From contig BCGN01000001.1 in NCBI GenBank assembly GCA_001599295.1, forward strand, positions 1,054,001 to 1,118,000: a stretch of DNA of 64,000 bases. Direction: 5' to 3'. Numbering within the stretch: position 1 is the first letter of the stretch; each line of letters starts with the position of its first letter. The stretch is from Sporopachydermia quercuum (Eukaryota). Positions 8,786-58,600 of this stretch are shown in pieces. The position numbers and the translations under genes were made by a program. The notes under the pieces were generated by a model that was not told the origin of the DNA, did not search any database, and saw nothing but the letters and a program-made list of their open reading frames with translations.

Positions 8786-10342
8786 CTAATACATTCCAAC
8801 ATCGGTATCTTGATTATTTTCTGGAATGTGATCTTCATCATCAGGCTCATCATCAAGATAAGTATCTCCTTCCGCGCGAATATACTCATCAATTAGCTGC
8901 TGGACCATCTCTCGACTTTCCGCGAACTCACCCATAATTCCATCACGATTTATGCTATCAAACATAGCTGACATTCTTCTGAAGTTTTCTAAAAACGCAG
9001 TTCGTTTAATCAGTTTATCATATTGATGGCTTGTCTTCATTAGTATACTTTTCATACTTGTAGTATTCGATATCATTAGTCCAGATACTGGCATAGTTGA
9101 GTTCGAGAATCCGCTTTTCGACTCAAGAAAAGGAGATCTCAAACCTTGTGCGACGTGTAATGAAGATGGACCCCATGATATAAAATCGGCTCTTTTCTGT
9201 GCTTTCACTATACCCTTTCTCACATCCATCTGATCAATATTACCCAATAGAATATCAAATGTCGAGATATACTTTCCCTCGTCATCAGGACAATCTATCA
9301 TACGTATCTTCTTATTCAGGAGTTCCAATATCACATCGTAAGCTGTTGATTTCCTTACATCCTTAGCCTGACTGACAAATTCGCTTGTGAACGGCGTGAA
9401 GCTTGTTGTAAGGAAATGTAGCGATGGATTGGGTATTAAGTTTGATAGAATAGAGTTCATAGTGTTGTACATATAACCAGGAAACCTCAGTGGATTTGAG
9501 ACTGTTGACATAATCGTGGCTATAAGTTGATTTGTTTGTTCAAACGATGGGTTCTGTAGTGACAACGTTTTATAAGCAATGTTGCTTAATGCTGCGTTAT
9601 CAAACACGTAACAAGCATCTGTGAATTCAATCAATCGTTTTAACGTTAAAATAGAATTGTAAGGCTGAACAACAATGTCATTATTAGAAGGAAATACGGA
9701 AAACGACGTCACAATCTTCTTAGGATATCGATCTGCCAAGTTTTCCAAAAGGCAACTGCCAACACCAGACCCAGTACCACCAGCAATTGAATGAATTAGT
9801 TGGAAACAACTTAAATTATCACAATTGTCCACTTCTCTATCTATCATATCACTTAGAACTTCTGCTTTACTTTGCCCGTGATCAAATCCTAAAGCCCAAT
9901 TATTTCCTGCTCCTGCACCTGACGAAGCAAGATATATATTACGCGGGTTAAACATGGAGCCATATGGACTTGCTAGGATTCCATTCACTACCCGTGGTTC
10001 CAAATCAACCAATAACGATCGCGGCACATATTTAAAGTCATCGGATTTGTAAAAATATACTTCGGGCTTATCTGTTCGAGTCCCAGGAGCTATGGGTTGG
10101 AACACCGAGCCTTCTGCTGTATTACTAGTGGTTGGAATTTCAACTGATGTACCATCGTTGCTTATTCCATGCTCTCTGCACAACTGAGACCAGAATTGTT
10201 GGCCAATTTGGTTTCCACATTGGCCTACTTGTAGGGTGATAATTTCACTAAATATGATAATTGTTAGTAATTAGTTCATATGTAAATCTGCGTATGAACT
10301 ACACAATGACTTTCAGTACACCGGACCCACATACCCTGACAT
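8786..10342 (-). CDS. TUB4: Gamma-tubulin (2 exons, 489 aa)
   Basis: Exon 1 10342-10335 (ATGTCAGG), intron 10334-10248 (GTATGT..TACTAAC..TAG), exon 2 10247-8786. Gives '[18 protein letters not shown]', 'DLEPRV', 'GAGNNWA', '[10 protein letters not shown]', '[11 protein letters not shown]'. Confidence 0.95.
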
Positions 10343-26170: not shown

Positions 26171-27225
26171 TCAACCAAACTTCATGAACTCTTCACTTGT
26201 TCTCCTCTTATTTGGATGTTCGTCATGAGATTCTTCTAATGAGCGTTTCCCCATTATATTTGAGGGTGCAATTTCAGAAGAGTTTAAGTCTGTAGTGGAA
26301 GGGCTCGTAGCCGAGAAAGTTGATGATTGTTCTGGAGATTTTGGTGCATCCTCAGCGTCTGACTGTTGCGGTCCTTCGTTTGTCTCATCTGCACTTGGAA
26401 TTTCTTTATGTTTTTGCTCTCCTTCTTTTACATCGTTTTCTTTGTTTTTAGAATCGCTGGAAGAGGCCTCTTTGAGCCATAAAATAGGCTCCATAACAAT
26501 ACTTTGATCTTCATACTGGCTCTTACTGTTCAAACTGTAGTGATTATCTGTGGTCTTGTTATATTCATCGGCTCTACTAGAATCATTGAAGTCGACATAA
26601 TAGCTTCCCACATTCACAACTTTATCCAAAGCATTAAGGTATTTATCTGGGCTGGATGGGTTATAGTATTTATTGGGGTAAAGAACTAACTCTACCAGTC
26701 TCTGAATGGTAAATGGAGGTGACTCTCGGAAGTTCTTATCAAGATGCATCAATACCCTGTTCATTACTTGTTTCAAAGTCTGTGTAGATGATGATAACGG
26801 ATTTTTAACTTCTTGCGTCAGGGGCACCGTGAATTTATTGTCCAAGTTCTATTCCCATTGTTAGTTTAGATTGAGTAAAGACAAATTGCTGCTACTCAAA
26901 GCATCACAGCAGTCGATATCGATAGTTATCCTTACTTCATTTATTTTGTTTATTATTCCATCTAATACTACAGACCATTCCAGTATGTTTGTCTCATTAC
27001 NATTCTGATCTCTTATATCTGTGGCCGATGAATCCTTCTTCTCATGTAGATCAATCAACATTTCTAATCTGCCGGTATCAGCAATACGAGATAGGACAAT
27101 GTCATCTAGTCCATTTGGTTAGTTTTGCGTACTTAAGTATTCTGTTACCAGTTACCGACCTTTCACGAAAGAAGCAACTGTGTTTTGTACTTCAAAGTTA
27201 TTATCATACAATCAACCACTTCCAT
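26171..27225 (-). CDS. PSY4: Protein phosphatase 4 regulatory subunit 2 (PPP4R2/Psy4-like; 3 exons, 287 aa)
   Basis: Exons 27225-27210, 27105-26936, 26848-26171. Introns: 27209-27106 (GTATGA..AACTAAC..TAG), 26935-26849 (GTAAGG..AACTAAC..TAG). Product has 'LSRIADTG..EWS' and the hallmark 'PPFTIQRLVELV..P..YY....KYLNALDKVVNV' with an acidic tail. Confidence 0.8.
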
Positions 27226-28827
27226 AGCTGAAGCAGAAGTTATACAGATTACTAAGAGAAATGATGGGTCATCTGCCTCGTGTTAGTTATCTTTGATGTT
27301 TGTTATTGTTTGAGCAGATTGTGTGGATGTTCTCACAGTAATAAATTCAAGTTCAAATGATGAGTATGATGAATACTTATTTCTCAAATCAAATCACTAA
27401 TGAAAATGTTCAAGGTGAATATCTATAAACCTTTGAAGTTCTATCTATTATCATATAGCGAAATTAGATCATTAAAAAATAGGGAACACTAATGCAATTA
27501 AATGATTAGATGATAAAATACTATCTCCAAAGTCATGACAATTATACCTCTTGTCCTAAAACATTTGTCACTGTTTTTTGAGTTTCAACTAGTTCGAAGT
27601 GCAAGAAACCTTAACGTTAATATCTTCCCCATTCTTTTTCTATCAAACTCAACTGATGAATATTTGATTTCAACAACTAATCATGTTTTAGCAGACNAAA
27701 CAAGTCAGAAAAAATGAAAGGAATTGATATCATTGTTGTTCGTTTTATTTCCCTTTTCTTGTTTATTCCTACTAGAGTATTTTGTGGAAGTGATTGATTT
27801 ATCAAAATCTACAGATGAAGCTAGTTATTCAAGAAACATACTAATCGGTGAAGTCGGAAGGTTAGCATTCTATTACATTATTCTATTATATTTTACAATA
27901 ACAACATGTATGTCGTTAACCTTTTGCTATCAATTAGGTTTTTCTATTTAGACCCTCCAGNTCCTTTTCCTTTCAAGGGTCTTGTTTGTCTCGCAAATTT
28001 ATACTTTATACTCATACAATTTCCGAAGATTTTCATGCACCTACCTGCACTTACCCATACGATGAATACTAAAGTCCACTTTATATATTTGAAATTACAA
28101 TTATAAGTAGATGTTTCGTTTTTCTTGTATTGATTCTACAACTGCCCCTAAGATATTTATAAGCTGAGTTTCCCACTCAATATATAAAAGGCTTTGAAGT
28201 ATTTTTTTAGTAATAGTTATATTCTATCTACACAATGTAATACACCCCTTTTTCTTTAGTTTCCTGACTGAAACTGAATTTTTCATATTTGGGTTTTGTA
28301 ATTTTCTTTTCTTAGTTATTCTTACGTTGTCCATATTTGGCAACGTATCTTTTTTCCGTAGACCACTTTTCTCGATGAAAGATTACATAATTCTCATAAA
28401 GGTTCCATCATTTAGTTGAGTTTTTTTACTTTGCCCCAAACATTCTTAAAACAGAGATTAAAATGAAATACTGAAACCCTAAAGTTTATTGTACAAAGTT
28501 TACCAAAACGGAAGTTGAAACTCAAGAAATTATAATTCGTAGAAGCTTAATCTTCTCAAATGAAAGCGAAAAACTAAATATGCCATATTCCTTGGAAGAA
28601 GTGTAATTTTATTCCAGTAATATTTGAAAATGTCTATTCCTTTACTGTGTTGCTTCTTGGAGATNTTGTAAGCTGTAGTTCATAGNAGTTGTTGGAATTA
28701 CCTAACTGAATGTGGTTTCTCTTTTTATTTTTCAGTGTTATAACTTACCAGAAAGAATATAAACAAATATAAAAATCAATACAAATCCTAAACGTCAGAT
28801 TCAAGTGACTAACGTGAGTAGCTTTGT

Positions 28828-30820
28828 CTTTGTAGGTTTGCAAATGAATATTCCAATCTACATCATAAATTGTAACTATATCAGAANCACTTTCATTCGC
28901 TTAGTCAAGTAATAATCATGGCAACTAAAGCGAAAAGTGTCAAGTGGTTTCGCCGGCTAAGAGTCCTAAACAGACATTTCCATTTGGCAGCAGTTTGGAT
29001 TATATACGTTCTTCATTACTATGACTGTCAATGGTGGAGATAGTGCCTACATAAAGCAATTCAAAGGAGATAACTTAAAAGCACGCGTGTGGATATGATA
29101 TGATCTTTCCAAAGACAATTCGATAAGTTTTTTTTGTTTATTGTATTGAGACCAAGGCATTGTTTGGTAATTGTATTGCTTATTCTTGCCGGTAAAATTT
29201 CAAAAATGTGGCTGACAGCATGTTCATTGGTTTGTCTATTCTCAATACAAAACCACGATTTCAACAAAGCTGAGAAAGATAATCAAGCAAAGTTTCCTGA
29301 AGGGACAACTAATCCCAGTTATATAAATTCATTGCAAAATACTATACACATAGTTATAGAGATTATTGTGCAATATTTTATTTATGGTATGGTTAGATAA
29401 CGACACAGATTTTCAACACCTTACTATAACTCAACTAACAAATAATTGAAAAAACTAAAGATCAAAAATTAAAAAATATGAAAAAATATTGTTCATTGGA
29501 AAAGATGATGTTTGAATAATTCAGTTACGCTTAAAGGCATTTCAACCGAGAGTTGACCTTATACTAAAACATCAGTTAAGTTGTTTCTGTCCCATATCAA
29601 CATTGAACCTGTTTCTTCCTCTAATGTAGTGAAATACTTATTCAGATTTATCAACAAATCTTTTGATCATTCTACAGCAACTGATACATATTACGAAGAT
29701 AGTACAGAAAACTTTGAAGTTCCAACTATTTAACAGGACAATATATTACTGCCGAGATAGCAGCTCTAAGAATATTTGAATTTCCTCACAAAAGTTTTCC
29801 TTCCTGCTATATGTTATGTTATACCTTTGAATTTCACCTGCCTTCACAAGTTTTGTTTAACGATGCTGACTACGATACAAGTTTAGAACAATTACAATAT
29901 TCTGAGTCTCAATTTTACGGTACCTCAAAACAAGAATTTAGTTCATATTACAACTATATCGACTTTGTCCATCATTGCAGACGGGAGAACAAATGGATTT
30001 CAAGGTCAAAAGCAAGTGTCATTGTAAAACTACAGAGAATATGTCCTTCTATGCTTTAGGTATATTACTTTTCACTTTATTAGAACATGTGGCAGTTCCC
30101 AACCTTTTTTATCCTCGGGATGTCAAGTTTCAAAAAGGCCTGAGGCTAGCTTAAGTCAATTCCTATGGCAGATGATTCTTGGAGTTTATTCTTTAAAGAG
30201 GCAGCAGAATATTCAACCCCTATGAGATCATGATATCAGTTTGCTCACTATCTAAAAGGTGGATACTGTAATACAACATCATCAACCTTTATATTCTTAA
30301 TAAAATGCCGATCATTTACAAGTGATATGGAAGATNCTTTACTTTATCATTATAGCATTCACCATGCTCAGATCACTCAAGAATTACTTCAAACAGCAGT
30401 TCTGATATGGGTTATGTCAAACTGCAATATTTCCTTAAATATAAGAAAAATTACGCAATGCAAATTCTATTTAATGATAACTGTGCTTCTTTATTACGTA
30501 ATGCTAAAATTCTATTTGGAGAGAAATGATTAGATTCTGCTCAAGATCATATTCAACTTTTAAGTGATAGCTTACTACTTTTAACGGAAAAACAATTATT
30601 GACTTTCAACTTCGTGAGCAATCAATTAAGGATCATTCAGAATCAGAGAATCAGCCTTTTTCTAAATAGGTTGTTACTAACATAATCCATATCACTATCT
30701 TGCTATGTATGAATACCTAGTCCAAGATGAGTAAAAGGCTGGTGTCCTGCTTTCATTTTTTCATAATTCAAACTATTATGCTGACTCAATTCAAAATTAT
30801 GATTATATCAAGAAGAATAA
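28828..30820 (+). mobile_element. Degenerate Helitron (rolling-circle transposon) Rep/Helicase fossil
   Basis: Collinear frameshifted peptides: LCRFANEY..NYIR (28828-28885); motif 1 IWQQFGLYTFFITMTVN (28982-29032); HUH motif 2 LFGNCIAYSCR/VKFQKCG*QHVHWFVY (29160-29239); motif 3 PYTKTSVKLFLSHINIEPVSSSNVVKYLFRFINKSFD (29557-29667); NYLTGQYITAEIAALRIFEFPH..FHLP (29724-~29842); DDSWSLFFKEAAEYSTP..QFAHYL (30171-30254); PIF1 helicase lead-in LTEKQLLTFNFV..ISLFLN (30581-30667). Element ends not resolved. Confidence 0.85.
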
Positions 30821-31939
30821 TTATCTTTGCATGCAGTGATATCTTTACCAAAATGAATAAACAACCAATAAATCGCTTTCTTTTTTTTATATATCATTAA
30901 ACAACAAATTAATAGGGGTACAGTAAAGCATAGATGGTATCAAACGTGAATCAGAATGTATAATTCAGAAACCAACAATAGTAATCCTGAGAGAATTAAC
31001 GTCTTAACTTCAATCAAGGTTTACTAATTTAAGTTTATAAGCTTAGCTACAGCTTTTTAAGTTTAAGTTTAATTGTTAGGTGAAATTTATTTCTCATCAA
31101 TTATTGCTTGACTCATTTACTACGGTTTGTGAAGAAAATTGTGTTTTGGAAACAATTATAAGTGCCCAAATATCACTTTGTACTATTTCAGTTTATCCAA
31201 TTTCCTCTCACTTCGAANNTTTGTAATTTCTCTTCCAGTTATTGCGAATAAGATCTCAAGATTGTTCTGTGTTATTGCTCTTTCTTTACTAGTTCAAGAA
31301 ATTGGTAATGTCATCATAAGTCGCATTATTCGCCATTTCCAAAACTCCTATAAGAACAAGCAAAAATCTCACTTTCTGGAGCGGAACAATAATATAATCT
31401 GTAAATAAAGATGTATATAGATAAATCAAATAACAATGAGTTCATCTTCTCTTACTGTCGCAACCTTTTCTTATCTAGAGCAAATGGAACTTCGAACAAG
31501 NAATAAATTCTTTACTATGTATTCCTGTTAATATATATAAACTATAACTTTGTAATTCTATGTACCTTCAGTATAGGCAGGACTACTTAGTCCTGAGGTG
31601 TATGTACTGCAAAACTGAGTTTGTTACAAAATTGATGTCACAGCTGTTGATGCTTCTATTTCAACCTCATTTTCGCTGGGATATTTTGACAAGTCTGCTG
31701 AGCGGATATTCGGATTTTCCGCAATGGCATTCAGCAAATATTTCAACTATGCTCCAACAAAGCAACCCTAATATTAAAGCTGGTTAAGACACCATTATTG
31801 AAAATATAAACTATACGTATAACGCCTTTTATTTACAATTCGGCCAGCAATGTTTCCTACAAACCTTTTGTTNTTCAATCGCTTTTATTTCCAAAAAAAA
31901 AAAGTAGAAAGACGACTCCTTCCAAAATTTCAATTCCAA

Positions 31940-31962
31940 CATGAAACCAAATTGGTTTCATG
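31940..31962. repeat. Perfect 11-bp inverted repeat with 1-nt centre
   Basis: CATGAAACCAA-A-TTGGTTTCATG. Confidence 0.9.
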
Positions 31963-32806
31963 ATCTCCTGAGGAAACCCACCTTAATGATACCTATCAAG
32001 CCGTAGATCAAATGACTGATGAACAGCTGTGATTTAACATCCCTACCTCAAGATATATCTGCACGTAATAAAAGGTTGATTGCCAAAAATGAACCCACTA
32101 TAATTACTTGCAGAAAANGTTCATTATCTAAAAGCCGAACATTTGATAGCTTGAGTTAATGTTTATTATATTTTACTCCTCTAACCACTTCATTTCATTA
32201 TTCTCTTAATTTAAGGTTGGATCTTTCTTACTATGTTCTTTTCTCACTTCACTTTATGTTCTTCGTACAATGAATCACACTTTTTGATCAATTATCTATT
32301 TACTTTCAGTACTACTTTCAATTCTTTGTTGGTATCCCAGTGGTTATACTATCTGCTATAATATATTCATTTAAATCAATCAGTATACATATTTTTATAT
32401 ATTTTTTGCGTAAGCTCTCCACTCTTGGTTATTGTTTAAGTTGAAGGATTTATGCGAAAAGTGCATTAACCAGCATGAAATTTCTTGACTTTTTACTTAG
32501 CCTTCTCCATTTCTACATATTTTCTGTTTCATTCTACTATATTTATTAGATATTAGGGTCTACATGAGGGTCTCATCTTCCAATTATCAACATCAAGATT
32601 ACTGAGATTCTCAGATCCCATCAACTTATTAAACGTTCCCAATTTTTTGAGCCACTACACTACGTAAACAGAATTAGTTAAGCGTGAGGCGCTCTAGTAA
32701 GTATTAAAAAGACGCTAAAAAAGAAACAATTCCTAAAACTGCAAAACCAATAAAAAACATCAGAATTATGAGCCTGTTCATGAGTTGAATAGATCTACTC
32801 AATAGA

Positions 32807-33613
32807 TTATTCACTAGAGAGAACCGTGCCTGGCATATAGTAGGGCTTTGGAACAAAATAAGAATTTTGTTTAGTAGCAATACCAGCATAACCATTATAG
32901 AAGCCAGTGACACTTAAAGCAAGTGCAAAAGCGCCACCAGCTTTCTTTGTCGTTTCACTACCGGTGAAGTCAGCGATTACCAATAGTAAAATCATTATGA
33001 ACACTTGTGCAATGAGTAAACAGAACGATAATGTCGACCTCAATGTCATAGTCCACATGATAAGAGTGAAGACCAAAAATGGTAATGATAGAAATCCTGT
33101 CGCATTTCTGAATTCTACAGGATCATCAGCGTATGCAGCTTGAACTCCAAATGATGGGTGCAATACTGCACCAAATGAAAGGAAAAATCCACCAAAGTTA
33201 CAAAGTAAAACTGCACCATATGTATTTTCAACAATAAGTTCCCAAATACCAGCAATAATTTGTAGAAGACCTCCATGGAAAAAGCAAAGACCAACTAAAA
33301 TATTCGGGCGGTGAACATCAAGTCCTCCTACATAAATGCAACCAAGGGTAAAGACAGAAATAGAGAATGCCATCAAACCAATGGGTGCAGGATTACCAAA
33401 TTTTCTTTGAGGGGCATGCTGAATACTTGGTACTAAAGTACCAGCAAATGCTTGAACAAATTCATCTTTATGAAATCTGCTCTCACCCAAATGAATATAT
33501 TCCGCATTGGCACCTGATGTGCGAATTCTTCCAATTGGTTCTGTGAGGTCAGAATGATGATTAGTAGTTTGTTTTTCAAAATCTATGGAGTCACCGGATC
33601 TTGAGTCAGTCAT
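32807..33613 (-). CDS. GPR1/FUN34/YaaH (ATO/ADY2, AceTr) acetate/ammonium transporter
   Basis: Signature 'FGNPAPIGL', 'GGLLQIIAGIWEL..ENTYG', variant N-terminal 'AFAGTLVP' (canonical AFGGTLNP) and six TM segments. ATG is at 33613. Confidence 0.92.
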   Translation of the reverse strand: MTDSRSGDSIDFEKQTTNHHSDLTEPIGRIRTSGANAEYIHLGESRFHKDEFVQAFAGTLVPSIQHAPQRKFGNPAPIGLMAFSISVFTLGCIYVGGLDVHRPNILVGLCFFHGGLLQIIAGIWELIVENTYGAVLLCNFGGFFLSFGAVLHPSFGVQAAYADDPVEFRNATGFLSLPFLVFTLIMWTMTLRSTLSFCLLIAQVFIMILLLVIADFTGSETTKKAGGAFALALSVTGFYNGYAGIATKQNSYFVPKPYYMPGTVLSSE

Positions 33614-49399: not shown

Positions 49400-51299
49400 T
49401 GTGGACAAGTAGATTGAAAATCGAAATATAGGCAATGCAATAAAGGTGAAATGAGAATTGTTTGAAAGAAAACGCGTAGAATATTAGTTCTCTCCTAGTC
49501 GGTTTAGATGTAAACTGCAAGACCGTTGTTTAAAAGGGCAAAATCAATGGCTGATTTCTTCAGCGTAAGCAAATTATCTGATATTTGATTCAATGATACT
49601 ATTGCTGAATTGATATCTCATACGTGTTTCCTGTCATCAGTTTTTGATAAGTCGCAAGAAAGAACACAACTAACAAAACAACGAAGCCTTGGTTGCGCCT
49701 AAAGTCAACGGGCAACTATATCAAGAAGAATTTTATAAACAAATGATAACAAAGTAAACCTCATAACCATCTGATCACTTAAAAAAAATACTCTCTATAT
49801 GGAAGGTCGTTATTAGATATACTGAAAATTATGTAACAAGAAGTACTCTGATAAATTACAGTAAAGGTAAAAGAAACAAACAACACTGAAGCACCTGTTC
49901 AATATGTGTAACTTCCAACAGTTGAGAAACAAAAGTTGAAATTCAAAGGAGGTAACTGTGTTGTTATGTAAGTGGCACTGAGGCTTAAAGGTTAACTCTA
50001 GAAAGATGAAGCTAAAATGTGTGAGGTTTAACTCAAAAAGGAAATGGAAAGAGAAAAGGGCAAGTAAAAAAGTAGATAGAAGAAAAGAGCAAGTGAAAAT
50101 GGAGAATCTAATTTTACATGTGAGTTACAGTGTGACTTACTAGTGGTCATTGTATGGGTGTAAAAGATAGGGTTAGAAACATTAATCATCAATTAATTGT
50201 TGCGTTTGATATACTTAGTCTATAGCTTATACGTAAAAAGAAAGCTGTTTGCAAGTGAACAAAAAGAGATGGAATAAATAAATGGTTGATGATTTCATTG
50301 ATGTTTCTATATAATAACTAATGCAAAAAGATGTAGGAAGGGGTTAGGCAGTAGTAGAATTTGCTATTGACAAGTGAATTTTAGTAGTAGATTGAATTCA
50401 ATGTGGATCGGTAATGGATATTGTAGCAGTATGAATGAGCCTAATGAAATGAGTCAATAGATATATAATTCTTGTCCAGCTTGTTCTGATTCAGTTTCCT
50501 TGATTGATTTATATATTATCTCTGAGATAGCATGTGTCATATCTTAACTCAATTGATCTCTGTCATTATTGATTGCTTTAGAATTATTCAATGAGCTCTT
50601 TTCTTGAAAGTCTCATTTCATGTGGCAGCATGAATTGGTGGTACAAATTTAAAGTTGAGCCTTAAAATTGGGATGATAACTTAAATACTTTAATTTCCAC
50701 TCGGGGTATCATACCGAAGTTTAGTTAGCTTTTGCTATATAATAGAGAATACTCAACTCATAACAAAAAGTATAGCAGTTGCTGTCAAGTTAGTCAACTT
50801 TATTTGTTATACTTACTGCTTTGAGAATGTGAAAGCATTCTTTGTCACCAGATCTAATTGGACTTCTTGATTTCTCCTCAAAGATAACGTCGTGTTTTAG
50901 ACATTTAAAAAATTAAGACTTAGAACAAACTATAATTGACGGTATTTATTCAATATTCTCAGAATCCTTGAATAAATATACAGATATTTCTGAACTAAGA
51001 TGTTTGAGTGTCTTAAAGAATAACATGAGAGAATTCTCTGGTTCGTTCAAGGACTAATCAATGAAAAAGCACAGTCAAAAGCTGTGAACTAAAATTAACA
51101 AGGATTTAACTTACAGTTTGGTCTGAAGTTTATTCCTGTACACTAGCATCAGCACATTCATGCATCATATTGTATATCATCAGCCTTACTTTCTCGACGC
51201 CATTGGCAGGAAAAAACAAGTCTTCAATCACGAATTTATATATCATACATGGTAGCATTTCTTTCATCTAGTATAACTTTCACATACATTCCGTTGTTC

Positions 51300-53340
51300 T
51301 CTTTGTGGTCAGTTCAGTAGGAGAATAGTTATGTCTTATGGTTCCTGGTCTCTCCCCTGCTTGAATAAAGCAATGTTGGGGAAGACGATGTCCTGCCAAA
51401 CATACTGGTTTCCAGTTTGACAATATAAAAGAAATCTGAAACAAATCCCTGAATTGAATCGTCTAAATGCTCCCTGAAGTTAATCTCTCTTCTTTTTTTC
51501 GTGTCTGCTTCTCCAATCAAAATGTACTCTGACCATGCGCGGAGTCAGAAGAAAGGTTATAAAGAATACTTTTTTTTGTTGACTGAAAATTTTCGAGAAC
51601 CAGTTGAGATGAGCATATGGAGATACTTTAAGAGCTATTATACTAAATTCTGGCTCTCAAGTTTTGATTTCCAAGTAGGTGATTGAGTTTGTGTTTAAAT
51701 GAGAGNAATTTCTTTTTCTATTCAAATAATAAGTTCATAATCTTCATTTTCGATCGAATCTTTAAAGAATCACTCTGCTACAGGTTGTTGCTGTTAATGA
51801 TACAAATAAATCAAGGAATATTCATTATCTGGAAAACATCATTAGAGTAGTTTAATGAAACGGAATATGTGAGTGATATGGACATGGCTTCTTTTGCTTT
51901 TATTGTTACCTAATCAGGTCCTTCTAGTGAAATACCAAAGGGCTTAGTCAATTTGTCAGTTAGGGCAAAAATATCAAGAAACAACTATATCAGAGAGTAC
52001 CAGGATATAACTACAGCGTTAATGATTATCGAAATATAAAAGACAGTGTTGAATTATTAGAATACAAAAGCTCCATATCAAATGATTCCGTTGTTTTGGA
52101 TCGCAATTTTGTCTTTTCAAGAGCTTATCTCATATGTCGGTTAATAGATAGGTTCAGCCTGATCACAGCTCTCTTTCATTATCGTTTTAATTAAATGGAA
52201 ATGCTGACTTGTAAATGAAGTCAAAACACTATTTTTTTATGAAAGTTATAAATACTTTTTCTATTTTAACTTGTATCTTTTTGTTGTCTTTCATCAAATT
52301 GTAGTATCTCAAATACTATTTCAAAAGTTAAACACGACTAGACCTAGGTGCAAACTTGTACATCTCGCAGTATTTCCTCTTATTTCTTACATTTACATTA
52401 GGTTAAGTTCTCTAGTTCAGTTTTAATTTTATGAATTGCTGACTTATCAGCTTTGCAAGTTCAAGTAGTTATGCTTTTTCTTGCTATACAATTAATGTTG
52501 TTTGCTCTTCAATCTTCTGGGTTTNTGTTTCCACTTAAAAGACTGTTGGCTTTTCATAAATTTAATCAACCTAACAAATGAAAGCCATTGCTCTCATCTT
52601 GGAAAATATAAGTAAGTATTGTANTTGCATTACCCATTTACCTCTTCGCGCTGTTAATTTTTTTGACAAATTCTTCATGGGATGCAACGGCTGAAAAATA
52701 ATTCAAATATCTAAGAACTTAACTACAAAAAGAAACTCATAAATGGCATCCATCGTTCAGATTTCTACAAGACAAATATAAAATAAACAGGGAAAGCCAA
52801 ACTCCATCATTGTGTATTTGAAATTATTATGTTCACCGTTTCCTACACTAGCTCAATAATAACTTGAATATTGCATGAGAAAAAGCCCCTGCAAGGTCTT
52901 TTCCACTGGAGCAACCATCAACCATATTCAAACTGGTTAAGCAGACAAACAAATCAATGAGCTGTTCCAAAAAAAAGTTGTTTATTTGATATTTATCAAT
53001 ACCCTTCCTCTTAAAAACTATTTTTGTATTGAAATATCAGAAACAATAATAAAATATATGCTCAGTTATCTCAATANCTAAATGTAACCAAGAAAAAGAG
53101 TATTCACTCAGTTTGAAAACCCCCATTCANAGTGTATTGTTTACTTATAATTTCGTACTACAAGTATATCGGATCAAATTATAAATAATCATAAAGACAC
53201 TGTAATACACAATCTTTTCTGAAATATTCTCCAATATTCTTCATCGCTACCTATCTCTTTGGCCTCTTTCTTATTAAATGCATAGTGAAAACGAAAGCTT
53301 GTCAGACCGCGTTGTATGGATTATCAACTCAAACAAAATC
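51300..53340 (-). mobile_element. Possible highly decayed hAT-type transposase remnant
   Basis: Weak but collinear minus-strand peptides across stops and frameshifts: FV*VDNPY..RPKR*VAMKNI (~53330-53230), LFLGYI (~53095), DGCSSGKDLAGAF (~52920-52880), IHNDG (~52810), degenerate CxxH (~52745), WK..FPNIAL (~51410-51365). These resemble hAT VENPxF/PSR, HTGxxLA, TDN/DG, CxxH and WW..FP motifs. Confidence 0.3.
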
Positions 53341-53963
53341 TACATGTAGAATTACGTTAAGGTTTCCAATAGAGTCATAAGAATAAAATAGTACACTCAA
53401 CTTTAACTAAGGGAGAGAAAAAGAAAAATACCAACTAAGTTACTTATTACTTAATTTAATAAGCTATATCATTTAGGTTTTACGGTTGTTACAAACTTTG
53501 GTAAGTAGACCGAACTTTCTCTCGCTACTGTGGGGGCATTTAATGTTCTTCTCTACCATGGGAATATTCGCTTACTTTTTTCACATTTTGCTTCTGAAAA
53601 CAGATCAATGATAGACAAATGCTTTACATGTTAATTGGTGAATCAGAGAGTTTTTANGCGTATTACACAGAGATTATATTGTCATTATTGTAATTTAAAG
53701 AGGGATAGCAATGAACAACTATAAAATTGAATTATTAATAANCCCAACTAGCCAAACCTAAAACTTTTTGGCTGCATATGTTCCTGTTTAGCTGACAACT
53801 GGATACCTCCTAGAACTCCAATCTGCAGTGTTATTTCCTCTTCTAATTTACTCCGTTAATGATCTTACTCAATAGTCATTTATCTTACATTGATTATCCA
53901 ATTACTACTCCAAAACAATTAAGTTAGTCATTTTCACATTGAAATACTTCTTCCTAATTGGTT

Positions 53964-54010
53964 ATGAAGTATCATTCGAATCCCTGTACTAATTCGAATG
54001 ATATTTTCAT
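53964..54010. repeat. 12-bp perfect inverted repeat, extendable to ~18 bp
   Basis: TATCATTCGAAT (53970-53981), 10-nt spacer, ATTCGAATGATA (53992-54003), flanked by ATGAA/TTCAT. Confidence 0.9.
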
Positions 54011-55609
54011 TCTTATTTCCGTAATCCGTAGTTAATTTACTTCCAAGCACTTAAAAAATCAGTCGGATAAATAAAGTTCAAGATCTATTGGATTCGCTCA
54101 TTTGGGTTTCTTTGACGAAGACTTTCCAATATGGAAGGTCAACTTTATTTAAGAATCTTATTACTAATANCTAAAATTGAGTTTTTCTTTGAAAAGAATT
54201 TAAAAGATAATAATTGATCATCGAATGTTTAGAATAATGAACGTTGATTAATGGAGTAGAAAACTTCTAGAGCTATATAACTGAAATCAAAAGTTGAGTA
54301 TTCAATTTGAGTTACCTGATTGAGAAACTTCTATCTGACAGATATTTGATTAGGTTATGCGATATAGCAGATTAGCATAGAAATGAAAATAAAGCACTAT
54401 CAAAAGGTTAGTTCCTCTCTGAATGACAAGTGAATGACAAAGATAGTGAGTCTATAGAGAAATAATTGAGCAATTTTTGATATTGCCTTTACTGCTACTT
54501 TTTTGATATAATTGTGCTTGTAATTCCAATAATTCATGACTCTAAAGTTTGATTATTGCAAATATAACACAATGTGCCTGAAGATGTAAGATTCATTATT
54601 GATAAGTCTGTTCTTTTATATACACTTCCTTTTCNTGCTCTCTCATGACTGCATCTTAAATATNCCTAAATAAGTTCCCAAGAGTTGTAATGAGTATACT
54701 TTGTAGGCTTTGAGTCTGTTCTATATCCTCCTTCTTAAATTAAAGACAATACTGCATCTTTATATAAGAGTTTATCACTTAGTTCACTGGGAGACTGGAT
54801 AGTGAATTTTTTGGTCAAGTTTATCTCAAGTGGATTGAGTTAATTCAATCAAACAGTTCCCTAATAAGCTATTAATAAACTAGTATATGTTATGTTTGAT
54901 GGAAAAGCATCATCAAATGAGTTTTTATAGTAGCTATAAGACAGAGATTGAGTTTCTATCTTTGCTATCACCAAGAGTTTAAAATCAACCTATATCGTCT
55001 CCGGTTATTTATCAATAATTGCTACAGCTTTGGTAGTCCCCACAGAGTATAAGGATTGAAATGCAATTACTATCATTACTATCATCACTATCATAAAGCT
55101 AGATTAATCGCAACCTTTGTATTCAAAAAGTTTATACCACTTCAATCAGATATTGTCATCTTAACAAAGTATATAAGAACCATTAGTTCTATATAATCAT
55201 AAGAATACTATTAATACATAAGGTTTACAAAGCAATTATCAATAAAAAAAATGTGTTCAATATCATTACAACGGCTTGTCATACAAGTCATCACTAGAAC
55301 TAAGATGAATTGCGATATTGACATTGGATTCTTAACAGATTTTAATAGTTGCATATAAACGGTTGGTATAGAGGTTGCTATCATTATAGTTATAATTATA
55401 GCAAATACTGAATTTAGTACCAATTTGTATAATAAAATCACTTTGCCACAAATAAAAACTAGATAACTAACCAGACTCTTCTCGAGGGAAGCTATTGAAT
55501 ACATAAATATGAACTATCACTACGGCTAGCACAATTTTCAAATTGAAATAATTATGATAAAATAAATATTATGCTAAATAAAGTATCATTAATCATTTAG
55601 GTCATTACT

Positions 55610-58600
55610 TTAATCATTTTTGATGAGACCATGACAATAATCAATAAAAGCTTTCTTTTCTAGTAAGCCAACGAAACTATTATTATTATCATAAATTGCA
55701 ATGATTCGAACCCCCATTTTATTGAAGGTCTCATAACCCAAAGTTATTGTTGAATCACTTTTCAGAATAACTAATGAAGTTTGGATAATATTTGTTAAAT
55801 TTGTTAGTTCTTGTAATAATCGAATTCCTAGCATTGAACTGTTAATGATCGAACTATTAACATTCACATTATTAATATTACTACTCATACTATTATTGTT
55901 TCTTCCAGTAAGTTCTTCACTTGCTGCATCTGAATTATAGTAGTGAACACCGATATTACAATCATCAATAATAGTTTTGTTTATATTATCATCAACAAAT
56001 ACCCCATGATTGGCATCCCTTTCTAGAATACAGAAGATCTCATCATGATAGGAAAATTCATTATTGAATTCTCTCAATTTATCCAAAGCAAACTCCAATT
56101 CAGGAGCATGTAAAACACCAATGAGGTGATTACTCGATATGTTATCGTCTCTTCTTATACGTTTAATTATTGGTATATTCCCATCCAATTGACCTTTATT
56201 CTGAATTCTGATCAGTGTCCTTCTCAATTCATTTGATGAAACAAACGGTGAATTTGTTATGTCAATTATTTGATTACTATCCTTATCATAGTTAATATCA
56301 ATATGTTCACTTATAAGATCGCCAAGCGTAACATTAGTATCAAAAACCTCTGAAGCTTTATTATCAAGAAATGGTAACCGATATTGCATCAATAACAAGT
56401 CATACACTGATCTTTTCTCAATAAACGAGGAAACCAAGTTTGAAAAAAATATTGATATTGATATTGGTAAAACATATGTATAGCTCGATGTTATTTCAAA
56501 TAATATAACAGCCAATGTTATGTTCATTCTTGTGACTCCAGCCATAAATGATCCTGCACCAATGATTGCATAAATTCCTGATTCAATGCATTCAATTGAA
56601 CCTGAAGGACTGGTCGAAGCCTCNCAGGTAAATAAGACCAAATTCGAGTTCTTGGATTGAACTAGTTGTAAAATAATTGCGATTATTCTACCATAAATAG
56701 CACCAATTATGAGACTTGGAACATAAATCCCTGCTGGTAATTTCAGACCGAATGAAAGAATTGTGAAGCAGATTTTGAATACCAGTAAAATTGTCAAATT
56801 ATAAATTATTGTTAATGAATCATTCTTACTGTTGATTGAACAAAATAGTGATTTGTTGTTTGAACAGGAGTTTGCTAAATTTTCAAATAATTCAGTAGCT
56901 GGAATCTTCCCATACTTAAGAAAATATGAGGAGACAGTAGTCAGAAATGTTATAGCTAAAACTTCAATCGTAGGACTCAAAACTTTCTTGAATAGCGCCT
57001 TCTTCTTTAGATTAAAACACCACCAATTGACGAATTTACAGAAGAAACCACCAAATATACCACCAGATAATCCAATGAAAATGTACCAGACCAATTCAAT
57101 TGTAAGCCAATCAGAATAATTTGTGCTGACAGTAAATGGTAACGTTTTGCCGTTACCATTAGGATTTAAAATTCTATAGGAAAGGATTGAAGTTATGGCA
57201 GTGAAAAAAACCTTGAATAACTGATTTGAAGGAAAATAATAACTTATCTCTTCTAATGAAAATAAAACTCCACCAAGGGGGCTACCAAAAGCTAGCGCAA
57301 TACCAGTACTAGCAGCAGCAGATAATATCTGTCTTCTTTCTTTATCATTAATTGAGAATTGTTTAAATAAACGACATGAGATGTTTCCAACACATGTTGC
57401 TAAATGAACATATGGGCCTTCCTTACCAATGCATAAGCCTGATGACAATGAAAATATTAGAGCAATTGATTTGCAAATGAGAGTATAAGAACCTAGAACC
57501 TTTCTCATGATAAACCCTGATAATATCGTTTTGACTTCCGGTACTCCACTACCTGCTGCTGTATAAATAATTCGTGGTTCAATAGGAGTAGAGGAATTCT
57601 NAGTATAATATTGCATTTTATGCTGACTAGTGTGTTTATTGGTATGGTGATTCTCATCAGTTTCACGATTCTTATTCAAGTCATAGTAATTTGTAGATGT
57701 GGTCAAATTACTACCATAAGATACCACATGGTTTAGTAAACGACTCCCAATTGTCATTGATTCATCATTCTTATTATTATTTTCATTATTGAAAGCCCTT
57801 TCTTTTGATTTCTTAGCCTTTTTTTCTCTAGCATTTCTCTTATTGTTAGAGTTATTATGGTTTTTAACAGGAATAACTGCTTCAACTTTTGTTTTAAGAG
57901 TAATCAAAACACTTAAGTAAGCAAATAATAAAGATAAAAACAAATAGATAGTGAAATCGATAGGAATATCAAAATTGAATAATTTGATATTAGAGAATAA
58001 ATTACTTTCTGACCAATTCATCCAATTTTCACATTTCCTCTCCCTAGTGTCATTGTTTTCACAACATTTTGAACGAGAGTTTAAAACACTATTCAAACAA
58101 TATCCAGTTTTCAGATCAGTTAACAATGTTTCAGATATGGTTATAGTATAAGCAATTATGGAAAATGAGATAGCAATAATCGTAATCAATACCCAAACTT
58201 CGATTGCTTGTGAAAATCTTACAATTTTACCTCTTAAGCCAGGAATTAGTTTCAATGAGTAGTTTCTGGAGTTTATTTTAATTGAATCGACAATCCAATC
58301 CATTGTTGTAAAATCGTCATAGAAACTTCTTTCAAAAGGTAATGGTGCATTCAAGCCTTCATTATTAATAGGGGAATTGTTGATATGTGCACTACTACGA
58401 TCGTTGCTATTATTGANTGAGTCGTCAAATAAGTCAAAATTCCCAGTGTTTCTCTTTCTAATAGATTTCAATGATTCGATATTGGTAGAGTCAATTGATG
58501 CTTCTTTATTGTTATCGTTATGAGTCCGACTATTACTTGTGATGTTGCTATTGTTGCAATTGTCCTTATTGAAATCTGAACGTTTATGAATGAAATAATT

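Follow-up and report, generated by a model that had tools for sequence, protein, structure and literature searches.

A probable relic of a Helitron RepHel gene in an intergenic gap of a genome resembling that of a budding yeast

Does a gene-free gap in the genome of Sporopachydermia quercuum hold the remains of a Helitron? Budding yeasts have small mobilomes, and Helitrons have hardly ever been reported among them. The question is raised by a segment of 64,000 nucleotides from contig BCGN01000001.1 (positions 1,054,001 to 1,118,000 of the forward strand; hereafter the window, in whose own coordinates all positions are given), where an initial annotation made from the letters alone proposed a fossil Helitron Rep/Helicase (RepHel) gene at 28828-30820. 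The present analysis reveals that a stretch of about 1.4 kb on the plus strand (28979-30362), located between two ordinary yeast genes, is very probably a dead and truncated relic of a Helitron RepHel gene in which the HUH nuclease and the linker behind it are kept. Supported homology is confined to this stretch and does not fill the span originally claimed. The proposal of a fossil RepHel gene with stops and frameshifts is upheld by the agreement of tblastn, profile search, shuffles, and stop count. The label Rep/Helicase is too broad, with only the Rep nuclease and the following linker being detectable and no remnant of a PIF1 helicase being found.

The case was decided by a small purpose-built profile. 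A degenerate DNA pattern for H-I-N-[V/I/M]-E-x8-K-Y-L-[F/Y]-K-Y, derived from the alignment of the tyrosine-motif piece of the locus with Helraiser, was scanned on metagenome contigs and yielded 120 Helitron loci. The window itself does not match this pattern, having R-F where the pattern requires K-Y. In Pfam, 13 of 14 long reference open reading frames (ORFs) carry Helitron_like_N and/or PIF1, and four of the 14 (L001, L076, L080, and L061) combine Helitron_like_N and PIF1 with the Pif1 2B domain. Since all three domains are present, these four are full or near-full RepHel genes. Metagenomic ORFs of at least 300 amino acids, 29 in number, were used both as tblastn queries and as input for a profile hidden Markov model.

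Against the whole window, all 29 references matched 29497-29745 in tblastn (E = 5e-9 to 0.08), and 18 of them added a second, collinear match in another frame, over the linker, at 29721-30401, with joint E values down to 5e-9. The best tblastn match outside the relic had an E value of 0.20. The profile was searched against 1278 overlapping six-frame chunks covering the whole 64-kb window. Its four best matches are all on the plus strand within 28979-30362 and follow one another in profile order, with scores of 27.4, 20.7, 5.3, and 3.2 bits, and no match outside this stretch exceeded 2.5 bits. As a null, 300 dinucleotide-preserving shuffles of 28900-30400 were used, none of which reached 5.3 bits (maximum of 4.3, mean of the maxima of -2.8, and standard deviation of 1.4). 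The similarity of the relic to the profile is therefore far beyond chance, and the collinear Helitron hits on which the initial annotation had made the identity depend were obtained with both tblastn and the profile.

The nuclease part consists of two aligned segments and a spacer (Table 1). Segment 1 corresponds to profile positions 133-224, with 5.3 bits, or 6.7 bits for a trimmed piece; these scores are weak, and they exceed those of all 300 shuffles and of all window sites outside the relic. In the FFITMTVN region, the profile consensus 'gkpdlFiTftcN' is aligned to GLYTFFITMTVN, and in the HUH region the consensus 'efqKrglPhaHi' is aligned to KFQKCG*QHVHW, whose H-V-H (29219-29227) falls on the conserved 'PhaHi', as in a homolog of Helitron_like_N. 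No profile match above noise was found in the spacer (29255-29556). Its 302 nucleotides, or about 100 codons, compare with the 97 profile positions (225-321) that separate the two nuclease matches.

The tyrosine-motif segment matches profile positions 322-363 with 27.4 bits (E = 4.4e-8), the consensus 'PYNpyLllkYnaHINVE..avKYLfKYvyKGhD' being aligned to PYTKTSVKLFLSHINIE..VVKYLFRFINKSFD. Homology in the ..HINVE..KYLxKY.. motif is also supported by a phmmer search of PDB, in which residues 710-738 of Helraiser (7lcc_A) are the sole match of this piece (E = 0.51), a result that is independent of the motif-based choice of references. The first catalytic tyrosine is kept (29635-29637) and is aligned to Y727 of Helraiser. 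The second, aligned to Y731, has become phenylalanine (29647-29649), so that the pair is not intact. A Y731F mutant of Helraiser is described as unable to cleave (the mutant results of PMC4778049). Because its second tyrosine is phenylalanine, the relic is filed as a member by descent and not as a working one. The distance from the HUH histidine (29219) to the tyrosine (29635) is 139 codons, compared with 134 from H593 to Y727 in Helraiser, which bears out the RepHel-like spacing of the blocks that had been claimed.

The linker provides the longest match outside the motif by which the references had been selected. From 29724 to 30224 it matches profile positions 383-563, the stretch between nuclease and helicase in RepHel proteins, with 20.7 bits (E = 4.7e-6), and its tail (30123-30362) matches positions 531-607 with 3.2 bits. 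At its start, the consensus 'eYldarYvsaseAvwrlfef' is aligned to NYLTGQYITAEIAALRIFEF, and FHLP, KWISRSKAS, and DDSW..EAA follow.

All of the peptide strings quoted in the initial annotation are literally present on the plus strand, distributed over three reading frames and broken by stops. Six of the blocks align to the RepHel profile in the right order, namely, FFITMTVN (29009) and KFQKCG*QHVHW (29198) in frame f1, PY..HINIE..VKYLFRF (29557-29682) in frame f0, and YLTGQYITAEIAALRIFEFP, FHLP (29832), and DDSW..EAA (30171) in frame f2. The other three find no support. LLEHV (30077) belongs to frame f1, but across that stretch the alignment to the profile continues uninterrupted in f2, and the f1 piece containing it (29942-30154) has no RepHel profile match at all. 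The supposed lead-in to a Walker A motif (about 30575-30680) scored only -3.3 bits against the profile. RFANEY (28834, frame f0), the 'RxANEY' block cited as the basis for a fungal-type Helitron, has no RepHel profile match, which leaves the fungal-type assignment without support.

The relic is decayed throughout. There are 9 stops in its 347 aligned codons (2.6%, compared with 7.4% expected at random for the same composition), all three kinds of stop occur within the 1.4 kb, and at least two frameshifts are needed to follow the alignment. Identities to the profile consensus are 22%, 37%, and 27% in the three segments, compared with means of 67%, 68%, and 51% for the intact references in the same segments. 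The G+C content (30-33%) equals that of the neighboring spacer, and in a second sample of this organism another 5 bp are deleted, relative to the window, at 29810, inside the relic. The stops, frameshifts, low identity, spacer-like composition, and strain deletion together point to an old insertion that has been evolving neutrally.

A number of results weigh against the identification of a Helitron relic and have to be set beside this evidence. Since the references were selected on the tyrosine motif, there is some circularity in the 27.4-bit match, but none in the 20.7-bit and 5.3-bit matches. In Pfam, the f1 read-through of 28970-29326 gave Helitron_like_N (PF14214) as its sole family, covering positions 104-189 of 191 and placing the H-V-H at the end of the model, with a score of 14.1 bits (E = 0.053) that lies below the curated cut-off of 28.9 bits. 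Such a score is expected for a decayed fragment with four stops in which half of the model is covered. Single stop-to-stop pieces gave no Helitron match in Pfam, and whole 767-residue frames gave nothing. When the plus strand of 26850-33001 was tiled against Pfam (the minus strand being covered by the six-frame profile search), PF14214 was found again with an E value of 0.19 among unrelated noise, and the same tiling gave 10 rows with 8 unrelated families at E values of 0.00024 to 0.54. The strongest noise of the gap is an hSac2 match (E = 0.00024, 21 bits) to a leucine-rich, low-complexity translation at 30575-30680 on the plus strand, which indicates that single weak matches are misleading in this DNA.

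Other libraries behaved similarly. In PDB, Helraiser was matched by only one of five pieces, the other four giving unrelated chains or nothing, and other PDB matches had similar E values. A phmmer search of 1.84 billion proteins with the 272-residue f2 read-through (29718-30533) returned only a spurious tandem-repeat protein, and word-index protein searches with pieces of the relic found nothing. Taken one at a time, the public-library matches are at the level of noise. Atlas neighbors of two pieces carry Helitron_like_N (scores of 0.88 and 0.76-0.80) and serve as leads only; the neighbor of the tyrosine-motif piece (0.88) also carries REP_ORF2-G2P. Weak as they are, these pointers from Pfam, PDB, and the Atlas, none of which depends on the motif-based choice of references, all lead to one family, Helitron.

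Parts of the expected element are missing as well. The first 132 profile positions have no counterpart at the locus in the profile search, and in the left part of the gap the best profile score is -0.9 bits (27674-27850), which is noise, and Pfam, with stops translated as X, returned nothing there but unrelated noise. No profile match above noise to positions beyond 607 was found anywhere in 26850-32800, PIF1 is absent from the plus-strand Pfam tiling of the gap, and no Walker A motif (G.GK[ST]) occurs in any plus-strand frame of the gap. No fused PIF1-type SF1B helicase is detectable behind the nuclease, this half of the gene having been deleted or having decayed until it can no longer be recognized. 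Neither 5'-TC/3'-CTRR ends nor a hairpin were seen in repeat and tandem-repeat scans of the gap, which gave only chance-level pairs and were not aimed at ends. The six-frame profile search found no second copy of the relic within the window. With helicase, N-terminus, ends, and second copy all missing, a whole element at this site is something that we infer; a complete element would formerly have been present and would later have lost its helicase by deletion.

Four other explanations were considered for the similarity. The one with the most in its favor, improbable as it is, holds that the locus is a dead host gene that had earlier captured a Helitron Rep domain, that is, a domesticated gene or a fusion of host and transposable element (TE) sequences, and not a transposon inserted in place. 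Table S4 of PMC10799480 lists, for 35 fungal genomes, proteins in which Helitron_like_N is joined to other domains; the same source gives Saccharomycotina a high share of TE-derived genes; and only the Rep half is found at the locus, with neither ends nor helicase. However, the plus-strand Pfam tiling found no other domain beside the relic in any frame, the organisms with PF14214 under the names A to G of the PMC10799480 table are filamentous or basal fungi and not yeasts, and the decay looks neutral, with nine stops and a strain-specific 5-bp deletion. An integrated replication gene of the HUH type from a circular single-stranded DNA virus or a rolling-circle plasmid is less probable still. 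HUH and tyrosine motifs are common to Helitrons and to viral and plasmid Rep families, and weak REP_ORF2-G2P and RepSA matches occur in true Helitron references too, as well as in an Atlas neighbor. Yet the longest independent match (29724-30362, 20.7 bits) lies in the post-nuclease stretch that leads into PIF1 in the references, while Helitron_like_N is the only Pfam match of the HUH piece and Helraiser the only PDB match of the tyrosine piece. To our knowledge, viral and plasmid Rep proteins have no counterpart of this post-nuclease stretch.

Chance resemblance in AT-rich junk DNA might be suspected because each library match taken alone has an E value of 0.05-0.5, like the unrelated noise of the same scans, and because the blocks had been picked by eye in the initial annotation. 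This explanation is refuted by tblastn, the whole-window profile search, and the shuffles: the four best six-frame matches of the 64 kb stand together on one strand in profile order, no shuffle attained the weakest of the three main matches, and every reference found the same place. We regard it as extremely unlikely. No more credible is a working gene maintained by unusual decoding, through programmed frameshifts or stop read-through. The domesticated yeast transposase KAT1 is described as using a programmed frameshift in a passage of PMC5499181, but the locus has nine stops of all three kinds and at least two frameshifts in 1.4 kb, has lost a cleaving tyrosine, has no helicase, and differs between strains by a 5-bp indel.

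Under the preferred reading of a Helitron relic, an ancestor would have received a Helitron, or a piece of one, in the spacer that separates its PSY4-like gene from its ATO-like gene. Selection on the insert would then have ceased, and the insert would have come to match the AT-rich spacer around it in base composition while gathering stops, frameshifts, and the change from tyrosine to phenylalanine at the cleaving tyrosine; the helicase half and the element ends would have been lost by deletion or decay. By analogy with Helraiser, for which the mechanism is established and whose residue roles are taken here from PMC4778049, the ancestral HUH/tyrosine nuclease would have nicked one strand at the element end and become covalently linked to it, and the fused PIF1-type helicase would have peeled off the nicked strand, which would have been copied and pasted elsewhere. 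The relic today has no function visible in its sequence.

Compared with known systems, the relic resembles the Helraiser/Helibat1 transposase of a bat (PDB 7LCC) in the alignment of its tyrosine piece and in the spacing between HUH and tyrosine. It differs in the phenylalanine at the place of Y731, the nine stops, the frameshifts, and the lack of a detected helicase, in having four other pieces without a match to Helraiser, and in its host, a yeast and not a bat. With the RepHel genes of metagenomes (L001, L076, L080, L061, and others), it is collinear over profile positions 133-607, which comprise the second half of Helitron_like_N, HUH, the tyrosine motif, and the post-nuclease linker. Unlike them, it has only 22-37% identity to the consensus (the intact members having means of 51-68%) and is without positions 1-132 and everything beyond 607, including PIF1 and the 2B domain. 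Since the reference contigs carry no organism labels, the match implies no particular affinity of the relic to fungi, plants, or animals. Truncated and non-autonomous Helitron remnants of other eukaryotes are similar in being dead internal transposase fragments between unrelated host genes; unlike them, the relic shows no ends, no captured gene, and, within the window, no further copies.

Whether the relic is new to this group of yeasts can be judged from the literature to some extent. A full-text literature search found no paper describing a Helitron family of Saccharomycotina. Table 1 of PMC7175516 gives a Crypton/Helitron content of 0% in its entries for S. cerevisiae and C. albicans, and the word Helitron is absent from a large review of budding-yeast genomes (PMC5499181). 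A new Helitron of Saccharomycotina is possible and unproven, and the suggestion that a Helitron lineage is recorded here for the first time in this budding-yeast branch is offered tentatively, being on balance doubtful. If it is true, Saccharomycotina were invaded by Helitrons, or retained them, on at least one occasion, and this genome or those of relatives may contain younger or intact copies at other sites. Independently of that suggestion, the relic, as a very probable Helitron remnant, indicates that rolling-circle transposons reached a yeast-like lineage and were later purged from it. It provides a marker, dated by its decay, of transposon loss in compact genomes and a query for better-preserved copies. 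The wider importance is modest because the relic has no visible present-day function. A practical gain is the route taken, as the small profile succeeded where Pfam, PDB, and the phmmer search of the large protein collection each gave no significant match.

The host and the setting of the locus are consistent with what had been claimed for them. The window is AT-rich, compact eukaryotic DNA with ordinary housekeeping genes, namely, those for an MFS transporter, Ofd1/Tpa1, gamma-tubulin, aspartate kinase, squalene epoxidase, PPP4R2, ATO, SDH4, a SET-domain protein, and a CLC channel. The 18 large ORFs listed for it lie at intervals of 0.2-6.2 kb. The gamma-tubulin gene on the minus strand (8786-9955 and a short first exon) has a single intron immediately past the start; within 10269-10340 of this strand the intron shows the signals canonical for yeasts, namely, GTATGT (10334) and TACTAAC (10269). 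The ORF spacing and these intron signals fit a budding yeast, as proposed in the initial annotation. The intergenic setting is likewise confirmed, in that a gene-free gap of 5.96 kb separates a PPP4R2/PSY4-like gene from a Gpr1/Fun34/YaaH (ATO) gene.

Table 1. Features of the PSY4-ATO gap and of the relic within it (window coordinates)
Feature	Coordinates	Strand	Remarks
Left flanking gene, PPP4R2 (PSY4-like)	26171..26764	-	Pfam PF09184, E = 2.1e-14
Left part of gap	26849..28978		No Helitron N-terminus or 5' element end detectable
Rep nuclease segment 1	28979..29254	+	Frame f1; FFITMTVN and HUH region; 4 in-frame stops
Spacer from HUH to tyrosine	29255..29556	+	At least 1 frameshift; length kept, similarity gone
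Rep nuclease segment 2, catalytic tyrosine motif	29557..29682	+	Frame f0; 'PYTKTSVKLFLSHINIEPVSSSNVVKYLFRFINKSFDH'; no stops
RepHel linker towards helicase	29724..30362	+	Frame f2; AALRIFEFP, FHLP, KWISRSKAS, DDSW..EAA; 5 in-frame stops
Right part of gap, expected place of helicase	30363..32806		No PIF1 remnant or 3' end recognized
Right flanking gene, Gpr1/Fun34/YaaH (ATO-like)	32807..33613	-	Pfam PF01184, E = 1e-71

The relic locus is genuine host DNA and not a contaminant, since it lies inside long contigs in the sequencing runs of two separate studies (S1 and S2 being the samples), although both are marked as possible sources of the window DNA; no RNA run is listed among those containing the locus. 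A search of the sequencing runs of two other organisms (B and C) indicated that both lack it, their matches being short and of low complexity or high copy number; the exception is one identical contig of 229 bp with a depth of 2.4, a possible carry-over.

Another AT-rich interval without genes, about 6.2 kb long (49400-55610; G+C content of 28-33%), separates the SET-domain gene from the CLC channel gene. It contains no ORF longer than 103 amino acids and no match to the Helitron profile, and no Pfam family was found at E ≤ 0.01 in 49.4-56.0 kb in six frames read through stops. In the right part of the gap that holds the relic, an AT-rich stretch of 46 bp (31516-31561) has an identical counterpart that is present in the genome at high copy number. 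The contigs of that counterpart have about 30 times the single-copy depth in both samples (2901 compared with 100, and 997-1093 compared with 33); they meet the locus at 31512-31561, where the assembly graph breaks, and a related high-depth contig in another organism has 5 mismatches to this stretch. The 46 bp could derive from mitochondrial DNA or from a repeat present in many copies. At 31715, the other sample of the organism has a 1-bp deletion relative to the window. The window has 73 undetermined letters (N) at 71 places; most stand singly, and they are spread over its whole length, with one at 30336 inside the relic and two close together (28665 and 28686) just upstream of it.

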